From NCBI GenBank assembly GCA_964546895.1, contig CAZJLW010000005.1:4252-35926 (forward strand): a DNA stretch of 31,675 nucleotides. Reading direction: 5' to 3'. Made by a program: the position numbers and the translations under genes. This stretch comes from an uncultured Eubacteriales bacterium. GTDB taxonomy: Bacteria; Bacillota; Clostridia; Lachnospirales; CAZJLW01. Shown here piece after piece: positions 28,816 through 30,626 of the stretch. The stretch's first letter is position 1; every line of letters starts with the position of its first letter. The notes under the pieces are model-generated. The model ran no database searches and had not been told where the DNA came from. It was given only the letters and a program-made list of their open reading frames with translations.

Positions 28816-29793
28816 ATGAGTGTTATAATAGGAAGCCGTTTGGAAAATATGCCTTGGCAAGACAGAAAAGGTAAGGAAGTAATTTGGCGATACGATAACA
28901 ACCCTATCATCCCGAGGGACTTAATACCGTCGTCAAACAGTATTTTTAACAGTGCGGTTGTGCCGTTTGACGGTTCGTTCGCAGGCGTGTTCCGTTGCGA
29001 TGATAAGTCGCGCTATATGGATATTCACAGAGGGTTCAGTAAGGACGGAATCAACTGGGAAATAGACGACGCGGTAATCACTTGGCAAAACAGCGATGCC
29101 GAGGTGCTTGTCTCAAACCATCGTTACGACCCGAGGGTTTGCTTTATTGAGGACAGATATTATATTACGTGGTGCAACGGCTACCACGGGCCAACGATCG
29201 GTGTAGGGTATACATTTGATTTCCAGACGTTTTACGCTATGGAAAATGCATTTTTGCCATGTAATCGTAACGGCGTACTGTTTCCAAGAAAAATAAACGA
29301 CAAGTATTGCATGTTGAGCCGTCCCAGCGATTATGGTCATACGCCTTTCGGAGATATATTTTACAGCGAAAGCCCGGATATGGAGCATTGGGGCAAGCAC
29401 AGGCACGTGATGCACACAAGCCAAGGCTGGCAGTCCACAAAAATCGGAGCCGGTCCGATACCCATCGAAACAACCGAAGGTTGGCTGCTGTTTTATCACG
29501 GCGTTTTGACCTCGTGCAACGGCTTTGTATACAGCTTTGGCGCGGCCTTGCTGGATATTGATAAGCCTTGGATAGTCAAGGCAAGGACAAAGCCTTACTT
29601 AATATCTCCGCAAGAGTATTACGAATGCGTAGGCGATGTGCCGAACGTTACGTTCCCATGTGCCGCCTTGGCCGACGCCGACACCGGACGAATCGCTATT
29701 TATTATGGCTGTGCCGATACTGTAACTGGTCTTGTGTTTTGTTATGCTGATGAAATCGTTGAGTTTGTGAAGCAGAATTCGTCTGTCGAGTAG
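28816..29793 (+). CDS. GH130 beta-mannoside phosphorylase (UhgbMP/RaMP2-like subgroup)
   Basis: [78 protein letters not shown] motifs. Confidence 0.92.
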
Positions 29794-29818
29794 GGTGCTA
29801 CCTACTATTTGGGATGTA

Positions 29819-29871
29819 GTTCGGTACATGGTGGTTAAAATCGCATAAGTTGTCGCCCATGCTGGGCGCAC
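29819..29871 (-). mobile_element. Degenerate micro-remnant of a group IIC intron (5' end plus 5' half of domain V)
   Basis: Minus strand GTGCGCCCAGCATGGGCGACAACTT, then 10 nt, then AACCACCATGTACCGAAC; begins right after a terminator T-tract. Compared with IIC sequences recalled from memory. Confidence 0.7.
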
Positions 29872-29915
29872 CTAAAAAATCCGCCTATCAGCGTAAAAGC
29901 TGGTAAGCGGATTTT
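29872..29915. terminator. Bidirectional terminator between the convergent GH130 and hicAB genes
   Basis: AAAATCCGC/GCGGATTTT arms with inner CAGC/GCTG; T-tracts on both strands. Confidence 0.82.
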
Positions 29916-30001
29916 GTCTATTACACAATACTAGTGTTAGGTAGCTCAACGTGAGCTGTACTTGCAAGTAATTCTGATATCTGTATTTTGTATTTACTTT
30001 A

Positions 30002-30412
30002 TTAGGTGTGCGGTGTGTTAAGATGGAGTTCTTTGATTAATGCGTTCTGCAAGACGCCGGAAAAGTTAATGTTAGCTTTTTCGGCTAAAGTATTTAACCA
30101 AGCTGGTATTGTACAGTTTTTTCGGATTGATCTGTCTCCATATTTTTCTGAATAGGCGTCCAAGTCAATAATTACTAAATTGATAAATTGATTTGGTTCA
30201 AGATTTATTGTATTGATATCGGAAGCCTCGGGTGCAACTTTACCATCCTCAAGCTCGTCAAGAACCCAGCCAGAAGCTGCGTCTGTAGCCTTCTCAATAG
30301 CATCTAAGATATCATTGCCCTGTGTAACACAGCCCGGCAAATCAGGGAAAATTACACAATAGCCCTCTTGTTCCTCCAATGGTAAAAAACAGGCGGGATA
30401 AACAAGCTTCAT
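30002..30412 (-). CDS. hicB: HicB antitoxin
   Basis: YPACF..EGYCVIFPDLPGCVTQG..A; C-terminal RKNCTIPAWLNTLAEKANINFSGVLQNAL. Confidence 0.93.
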   Translation of the reverse strand: MKLVYPACFLPLEEQEGYCVIFPDLPGCVTQGNDILDAIEKATDAASGWVLDELEDGKVAPEASDINTINLEPNQFINLVIIDLDAYSEKYGDRSIRKNCTIPAWLNTLAEKANINFSGVLQNALIKELHLNTPHT

Positions 30413-30443: not shown

Positions 30444-30626
30444 CTATAAAATTCCAGCCTGCTTCATAATACTTTTTACAGTTAATTTATCTAGATCTCC
30501 ACTATGCTGAGGAATTGTTACTTTACCTTCTTTTATAGGATGAATGTAATGCTTGTGTGAACCTTTTGTGTTCTTTAATATCCACCCATCATTAAAAATT
30601 ATACGCTCAACTTCACGAAACGTCAT
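30444..30626 (-). CDS. hicA: HicA mRNA interferase toxin
   Basis: 60 aa; DGW....KGSHKHYIHP.K.GKVTIPQH.GDL...TVKSIMKQAG; catalytic GSH present. Confidence 0.93.
   Translation of the reverse strand: MTFREVERIIFNDGWILKNTKGSHKHYIHPIKEGKVTIPQHSGDLDKLTVKSIMKQAGIL

Follow-up and report, generated by a model that had tools for sequence, protein, structure and literature searches.

In a 31,675-nt stretch of DNA from an uncultured Eubacteriales bacterium (the window), we identified 53 nt, located after the terminator of a hicAB operon, that are very probably the non-functional remains of a bacterial class C (IIC) group II intron. By inspection of the sequence, this stub runs from 29871 to 29819 on the minus strand. 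The order on that strand is ...GCGGATTTTTT, then AG, then the stub (GTGCGCCCAGCATGGGCG, ACAACTTATGCGATTTT, and AACCACCATGTACCGAAC), and then TACATCCC... An earlier sequence-only reading of this DNA had described a 53-nt IIC fossil at a terminator, which keeps the intron's 5' end and domain V's 5' half (with CAC as the triad). Its quotation of the minus strand was exact, and its description holds up when the stub is compared to intact introns of this family from the same order. The stub has three parts: the intron's 5' end (block 1, 29854..29871), a bridge of 17 nt (29837..29853), and the 5' strand and GAAC loop of domain V (block 2, 29819..29836). It has what is expected of a truncated group II intron: significant partial homology, a canonical site, and the loss of essential parts.

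The site is a hairpin that resembles an intrinsic terminator (29874..29915, minus strand), with an A-tract, a stem of 12+4 bp, and a T-run. In the predicted RNA fold, 29915-29876 are paired and are followed by UU. The minimum free energy is -41.1 kcal/mol over 136 nt (z = -3.84), and 0/200 shuffles were as stable. A simple terminator scan did not pick up the hairpin at 29915-29876, because its stem is long and interrupted. On the minus strand, TTTTTT is followed by AG (29872..29873) and then by the start of the stub at 29871. This spacer of 2 nt between the T-run and the first base of the intron can be compared to the spacers of 2-4 nt at other insertion sites. The last gene before the terminator encodes a HicB-like antitoxin (30002..30412, minus strand; PF15919, 58.1 bits), and the HicA toxin is encoded at 30444..30626 on the same strand (PF07927, 69.1 bits). 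As its target in the DNA, the intron used this hairpin of the hicAB terminator.

On the other side of the stub, a GH130 gene from the list of open reading frames converges on it (28816..29793, plus strand; PF04041, 232.5 bits). Its stop codon and the end of the stub are 25 nt apart; the deletion of the intron's 3' end thus left the gene untouched. A small 6-bp hairpin (AGTAGG/CCTACT, 29789-29806) lies over this stop codon, just outside the stub, with ATTT after it on the plus strand; it may serve the GH130 gene as a weak terminator.

The stub begins with GTGCG (29871-29867), which fits the GUGYG consensus for the 5' ends of IIC introns. All 18 positions of block 1 match intact introns from relatives in the same order (blastn-short, E = 3e-5 to 1e-4). 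The homology extends to about nucleotide 26-30 of the intron, at 88-90% identity (blastn against the introns from G244, G356, and G288). Using a 20-mer pattern for the 5' end, with up to 2 mismatches allowed, we found matches in 20 of 401 genomes from the same order, among them the genome to which the window belongs. There were 42 matches in these 401 genomes, versus 1 for the reversed control. The matches are often multicopy (up to 8 per genome) and are often near the ends of contigs.

In complete contigs, the matches are the beginnings of elements of 1,876-1,919 nt. These intact copies (for instance, in G244, G272, G356, and G127) match Rfam's group-II-D1D4-3 (RF02001) at 141-147 bits, and they also match D1D4-1. 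They encode a protein with RVT_1 and GIIM domains, and at their 3' end, domain VI comes after a domain V whose triad is CGC. Since the family's reverse transcriptases (RTs) contain no other Pfam domain, they lack an endonuclease (En) domain. The first ~21 nt of the intact introns form a perfect 8-bp hairpin. In the stub, block 1 and the next bases form the same hairpin, with one bulge; the stub's first 21 nt are predicted to fold into a GC-rich hairpin directly after the terminator.

IIC introns target intrinsic terminators (PMC4424553). Among the order relatives, we found ~30 distinct 5' ends from this family, and nearly all of them are preceded by a hairpin, a T-run, and a spacer of 2-4 nt, a placement that is the hallmark of IIC introns (PMC4424553). 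The insertion in the window conforms to this: the hairpin and T-run are followed by the 2-nt spacer AG, and the intron is in the sense orientation.

The relatives also contain some unusual copies. In G244, two IIC introns are inserted head to head over one bidirectional terminator hairpin (C1, ~641372-641700; L039 / L055 3092-3401). The two are on opposite strands and begin a few nt beyond their respective sides of the hairpin, an arrangement confirmed by a second match to D1D4-3 (L055 3225-3396, plus strand). In G247, an intact-looking IIC intron is split at position 22 by an element of ~1.7 kb (L058, G247:C7:1161800-1165200, ~294-2008). Terminal inverted repeats (GAGGGCACTGAAAAAGTC / GACTTTTTCAGTGCCCTC) and a 9-bp duplication of the target (GGGCGCAAT) accompany the element, which has two ORFs on the minus strand (133 and 264 amino acids) and looks like an IS-type insertion into the intron. 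We had considered a hot spot for insertion at intron position ~22, and we dropped this idea given the element's own inverted repeats and target duplication. Finally, three loci contain short 5'-end stubs of related introns, of 20-50 nt, which are followed by unrelated DNA. Those in L041 (G074:C5) and L044 (G302:C80) lie behind terminators, and the one in L050 (G074:C96) does not.

In intact copies of the family, domain V reads AACCGCC-NN-GTACCGAAC-GGTA-YG-NN-GGTGG... Block 2 matches the 5' strand and loop of this domain at 16/18 positions. Of the two mismatches, one is within the NN pair (positions 8-9), and the other converts the catalytic triad from CGC to CAC (G>A). Because positions 8-9 vary among the intact copies, the change in the triad is the sole mismatch at a conserved position. 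The sequence-only reading had reported 15/18, with only transitions, relative to an 18-mer that it attributed to the O. iheyensis intron. That count is arithmetically right. This 18-mer is found exactly in at least 120 stretches, mostly of DNA from Bacillota, and often near contig ends. Our own comparison drew on relatives other than those with the 5' end (GGGCAACAAC) that most resembles the one in the window. Local alignment at six loci (L059, L060, L066, L067, L070, and L071) gave no domain V above the threshold; these loci stop before the 3' end of the intron or are disrupted.

Could the match to domain V be due to chance? If so, only the first ~30 nt would be derived from an intron, and the rest would be native intergenic sequence. 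The stubs in L041, L050, and L044 show that relatives do contain 5' ends without more of the intron, and by BLAST, the domain V block alone is insignificant (E = 6.3 against 27 kb). But when we shuffled the 35 nt that follow block 1, not one shuffle in 20,000 scored as high as 16/18 when compared to the set of domain V sequences. Even when we compared 1,000 shuffles to every 18-mer of four whole introns, the best score was 15, while the observed score of 16 falls exactly on domain V. The block is also on the right strand, in the right order, and at the right distance relative to block 1. Furthermore, its sole conserved mismatch is in the triad, and the same joining of the 5' end to domain V is found in two other elements (described below). 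We consider a chance resemblance to be very unlikely. Given its position, its strand, and the shuffle test, we conclude with good confidence that block 2 is derived from domain V.

The stub does not contain a complete domain V hairpin with a CGC triad: the 5' strand and the loop are present, and the 3' strand (GGTA..GGTGG) is absent. We considered whether TACAT, after the loop, is a remnant of the 3' strand, but the alignment requires two gaps and is not significant, so we rejected it. We also scanned the window with Rfam, using the gathering thresholds for all of it and E <= 10 for 29600-30100, and found no group II model. As a control, we scanned the intact domains V and VI from G244 (L055 1050-1400), and RF00029 (Intron_gpII, which represents domains V and VI) had no match at E <= 10, while D1-D4 scored over 140 bits. 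Because RF00029 misses even the intact domains V and VI of this family, the negative result from Rfam is silent about the domain V half of the stub.

Between the two blocks, the first ~10-12 nt of the bridge align to intron positions ~19-30, as seen also in an alignment of three shortened elements. The deletion junction would lie somewhere within the bridge (29853-29837), and its exact position is inferred. ATTTT in the bridge may correspond to the final bases of the linker ahead of domain V. We also tried to place a clean junction with CTTAT microhomology in the window; this would need the loss of another ~20 nt and does not fit.

Besides the 3' strand of domain V, the stub has no domain VI and no 3' splice site, and domains I-IV are missing together with the RT gene. 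RF02001, RF01998, and RF01999, which describe D1-D4 (including the exon-binding sites), had no match in the window or in the genome. The sequence after GAAC is unrelated to the 3' end of the family (...GTGAGAGG...CTACTCGATT), so we found neither domain VI nor a 3' splice site there. No RT/maturase (RVT_1 and GIIM) is encoded in the stub, and 53 nt is too short to hold one. The sequence-only reading was right that domains I-IV, the RT ORF, and the 3' end are lost, but its proposal that both ends of the intron are joined within the 53 nt was mistaken, as the 3' end is missing. With no domain I, no domain VI, no RT, and just half of domain V, the stub is unable to fold as a ribozyme, to splice, or to move. 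It has no evident function.

We searched for a parent intron in the assembly (238 contigs, 92% complete). There was no match to RVT_1, RF02001, or RF00029, and GIIM gave only a sub-threshold match of 16 bits. A motif search found no second copy of the 5' motif or of the domain V motif. When we compared four intact introns and their RTs to the assembly with blastn and tblastn, the only hit was the stub itself. The sequence-only reading had suggested a search for intact introns and for other copies near terminators, and neither was found in this genome. Because multicopy elements often drop out of bins, these results do not prove that the genome lacks an intron.

To look for other alleles, we used four gut metagenome runs, all from one study, that hold the locus. 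Because the source sample of the assembly may be among them, these runs are not independent evidence. Contigs from 3/4 runs bridge the stub, and they have no difference within it. One of these runs (X2) has an extra T, on the minus strand, in the T-run between the terminator and the stub (29873/29874). In run X4, the stub is not covered by any contig, which makes this run uninformative. In the reads and contigs of the four runs, we found no joints and no allele with an empty site or with a full intron. Because neither allele was found, we infer the history of insertion and then deletion, rather than observing it.

The stub being identical in three samples, together with the GC-rich hairpin that its first 21 nt form right behind the terminator, could be explained if this stretch were a functional and conserved part of the hicAB 3' UTR, or of a bidirectional terminator, and merely resembled an intron. 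For instance, it might be a co-opted hairpin that stabilises the transcript. But the samples are from one study and probably contain the same species, so their identity is uninformative about selection. Also, the locus is absent from the relatives that we searched, all of which are related at the level of the order: a DNA search with a region of 401 nt against 60 of them gave only short or unrelated matches or matches to intron 5' ends, and no syntenic locus. A 36-mer from the stub and a 22-mer from the terminator had no exact matches in the collections of genome and metagenome contigs. And derivation from an intron explains the sequence fully. A native, functional UTR is, in our view, the least probable explanation, with hardly any chance of being correct.

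We propose that the stub is what is left of a full-length intron of ~1.9 kb, which would have retrohomed behind the hicAB terminator. About 1.8 kb, from around position 30 to the last few bases before domain V, would then have been lost. With it would have gone domains I-IV and the RT/maturase gene. A further stretch, which starts at the domain V loop and takes in domain VI and the 3' splice site, would also have disappeared. The internal loss and the 3' loss may have been separate deletions in the host or one complex event.

Gutted copies of the same design do exist. We searched contigs from species-representative genomes and from metagenomes for a gapped pattern: the 5' block, then 8-38 nt, and then the 5' strand of domain V. 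Besides the window, this gave one case in each collection, each a singleton with a different junction, although this rarity holds only for the subfamily, to which the pattern is specific. With a gap of 39-69 nt, no case was found. The genomic case (the G118 mini) is in contig JANQFZ010000050.1 from a Vallitaleaceae MAG (L061 5598-5660, minus strand). It comprises 20 nt of the 5' end, a bridge of 32 nt, and the 5' half of domain V, and it is cut 5 nt past the loop. Its 5' end abuts the 3' end of a full-length intron (L054 / L061 5598-5760), and the contig ends within that full-length copy. This tandem suggests that a terminator site that already contains a stub can be invaded again. The other case is in the metagenome contig Ga0310694_10419974 (L062 1259-1372). 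It joins ~21 nt of the 5' end to the ~28 nt that immediately precede a complete domain V (a bridge of 31 nt), it keeps the whole of domain V and the start of domain VI, and its junction has microhomology of the TTATG type. The three junctions, with bridges of 17 nt in the window and 32 and 31 nt in the others, differ in both position and sequence.

These two cases bear on the proposal, made by the sequence-only reading, that there is a family of non-autonomous mini-elements at terminators. Under this proposal, full-length IIC introns would mobilise such minis to terminators in trans, and the stub would be one of them. The same architecture is indeed found in three unrelated sources, behind a terminator or behind an intron at such a site, and all three minis have TTAT at an equal offset after the 5' hairpin. 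But instead of near-identical copies at several sites, the stub is single-copy in its own genome, where no RT was found, and the only other members are the two dissimilar singletons, whose bridges are nearly twice as long. By established group II biochemistry, for an RNA in which domain I and its exon-binding sites, the 3' strand of domain V, and domain VI are absent, reverse splicing would be chemically implausible. We consider that the proposal has little chance of being correct, even less than a chance match to domain V.

A single-step origin deserves somewhat more weight, but we still consider it to be improbable. The En-less RT would start its cDNA within the reverse-spliced intron RNA, near an exposed domain V loop. 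A switch of template to the 5' hairpin, across RNA that was broken or structured, would then have installed the element as a stub from the start. In favor of this, the three independent minis keep ~20-30 nt that include the 5' hairpin, as well as sequence from 5-30 nt before domain V, and 2/3 of them end 0-5 nt beyond the domain V loop. Also, the RTs of this family lack an endonuclease domain, and for En-less group II introns, priming by the strands of the replication fork is known (PMC4424553). However, abortive or template-switched cDNA begins at the 3' end of the intron and should retain it, and here it is lost. (Simple abortive reverse transcription does not fit for the same reason: the intron's 3' end should survive.) The junctions of the three minis differ, and since the metagenome mini has a complete domain V, the internal loss and the 3' loss are separable. 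No feature of the sequence distinguishes this scenario from deletions in the host.

Under the preferred reading, in which an inserted intron decayed, the common features of the minis still call for comment. All three keep the first hairpin, and 2/3 break within 5 nt of the domain V loop. That two of three end near this loop is a hint that the process was not random, and simple random deletion would not account for it. Deletion associated with hairpins and template switching by the RT are each compatible with the pieces that were retained; with n = 3 and differing junctions, these cannot be separated from chance. A more speculative idea, which we think is unlikely but not far-fetched, is that IIC introns collapse by a preferred path. 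There would be an internal loss from nucleotide ~20-30 to ~5-30 nt before domain V, followed by a break at the domain V loop. Microhomology of the TTATG type, as in the metagenome mini, could be used for the internal loss. The hairpins at the ends might be hot spots for deletion or template switching, such as by cleavage by a hairpin nuclease or by end-to-end switching of the RT. If this path is real, then stubs of 50-80 nt next to terminators would be a predictable end state, and the terminator could be invaded again, as in the G118 tandem. For now, the retention of the same pieces in three minis gives a weak clue to the way in which group II introns decay.

The stub is a record that a IIC intron once invaded a gut bacterium whose assembled genome is now without an intron or an RT. 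It also illustrates how small the remnant of a IIC intron can get and still be recognisable. Annotators might mistake such a stub for a small RNA or for a UTR motif. Because RF00029 misses the intact domains V and VI of this IIC subfamily, censuses of introns that are based on domain V will undercount it.

How does the stub compare to known systems? Like the IIC introns (PMC4424553; intact copies in G244, G272, G356, and G127), it has the 5' end GUGCGCCCAGCAUGGGCG, it lies 2 nt past the T-run of a terminator in the sense orientation, and it has the 5' strand and GAAC loop of domain V. Unlike them, it has no domains I-IV, RT/maturase ORF, 3' strand of domain V, domain VI, or 3' splice site, and its triad is CAC instead of CGC. 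It is a derivative of this class and not a functional member. The G118 and metagenome minis share its ~20-nt 5' hairpin, short bridge, and domain V, and the G118 mini is also cut after the domain V loop. They differ in the length of the bridge (32 or 31 nt instead of 17) and in its sequence; in addition, the metagenome mini has the whole of domain V and the start of domain VI, and the G118 mini immediately follows a full-length intron. Introns without an ORF, such as C.te.I1 (PMC4424553), resemble the stub in that neither has an intron-encoded protein, but those introns are complete six-domain ribozymes that self-splice, and the stub has no ribozyme core. Most copies of group II introns in bacteria have been truncated or rendered inactive (PMC4424553). 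Like these, the stub is dead, hollowed out by deletion, and left at its original insertion site; beside them, it has undergone both an internal loss and the loss of its 3' end. The stub is an ordinary, non-functional remnant of a well-known mobile element, and is unusual solely because it is so small.
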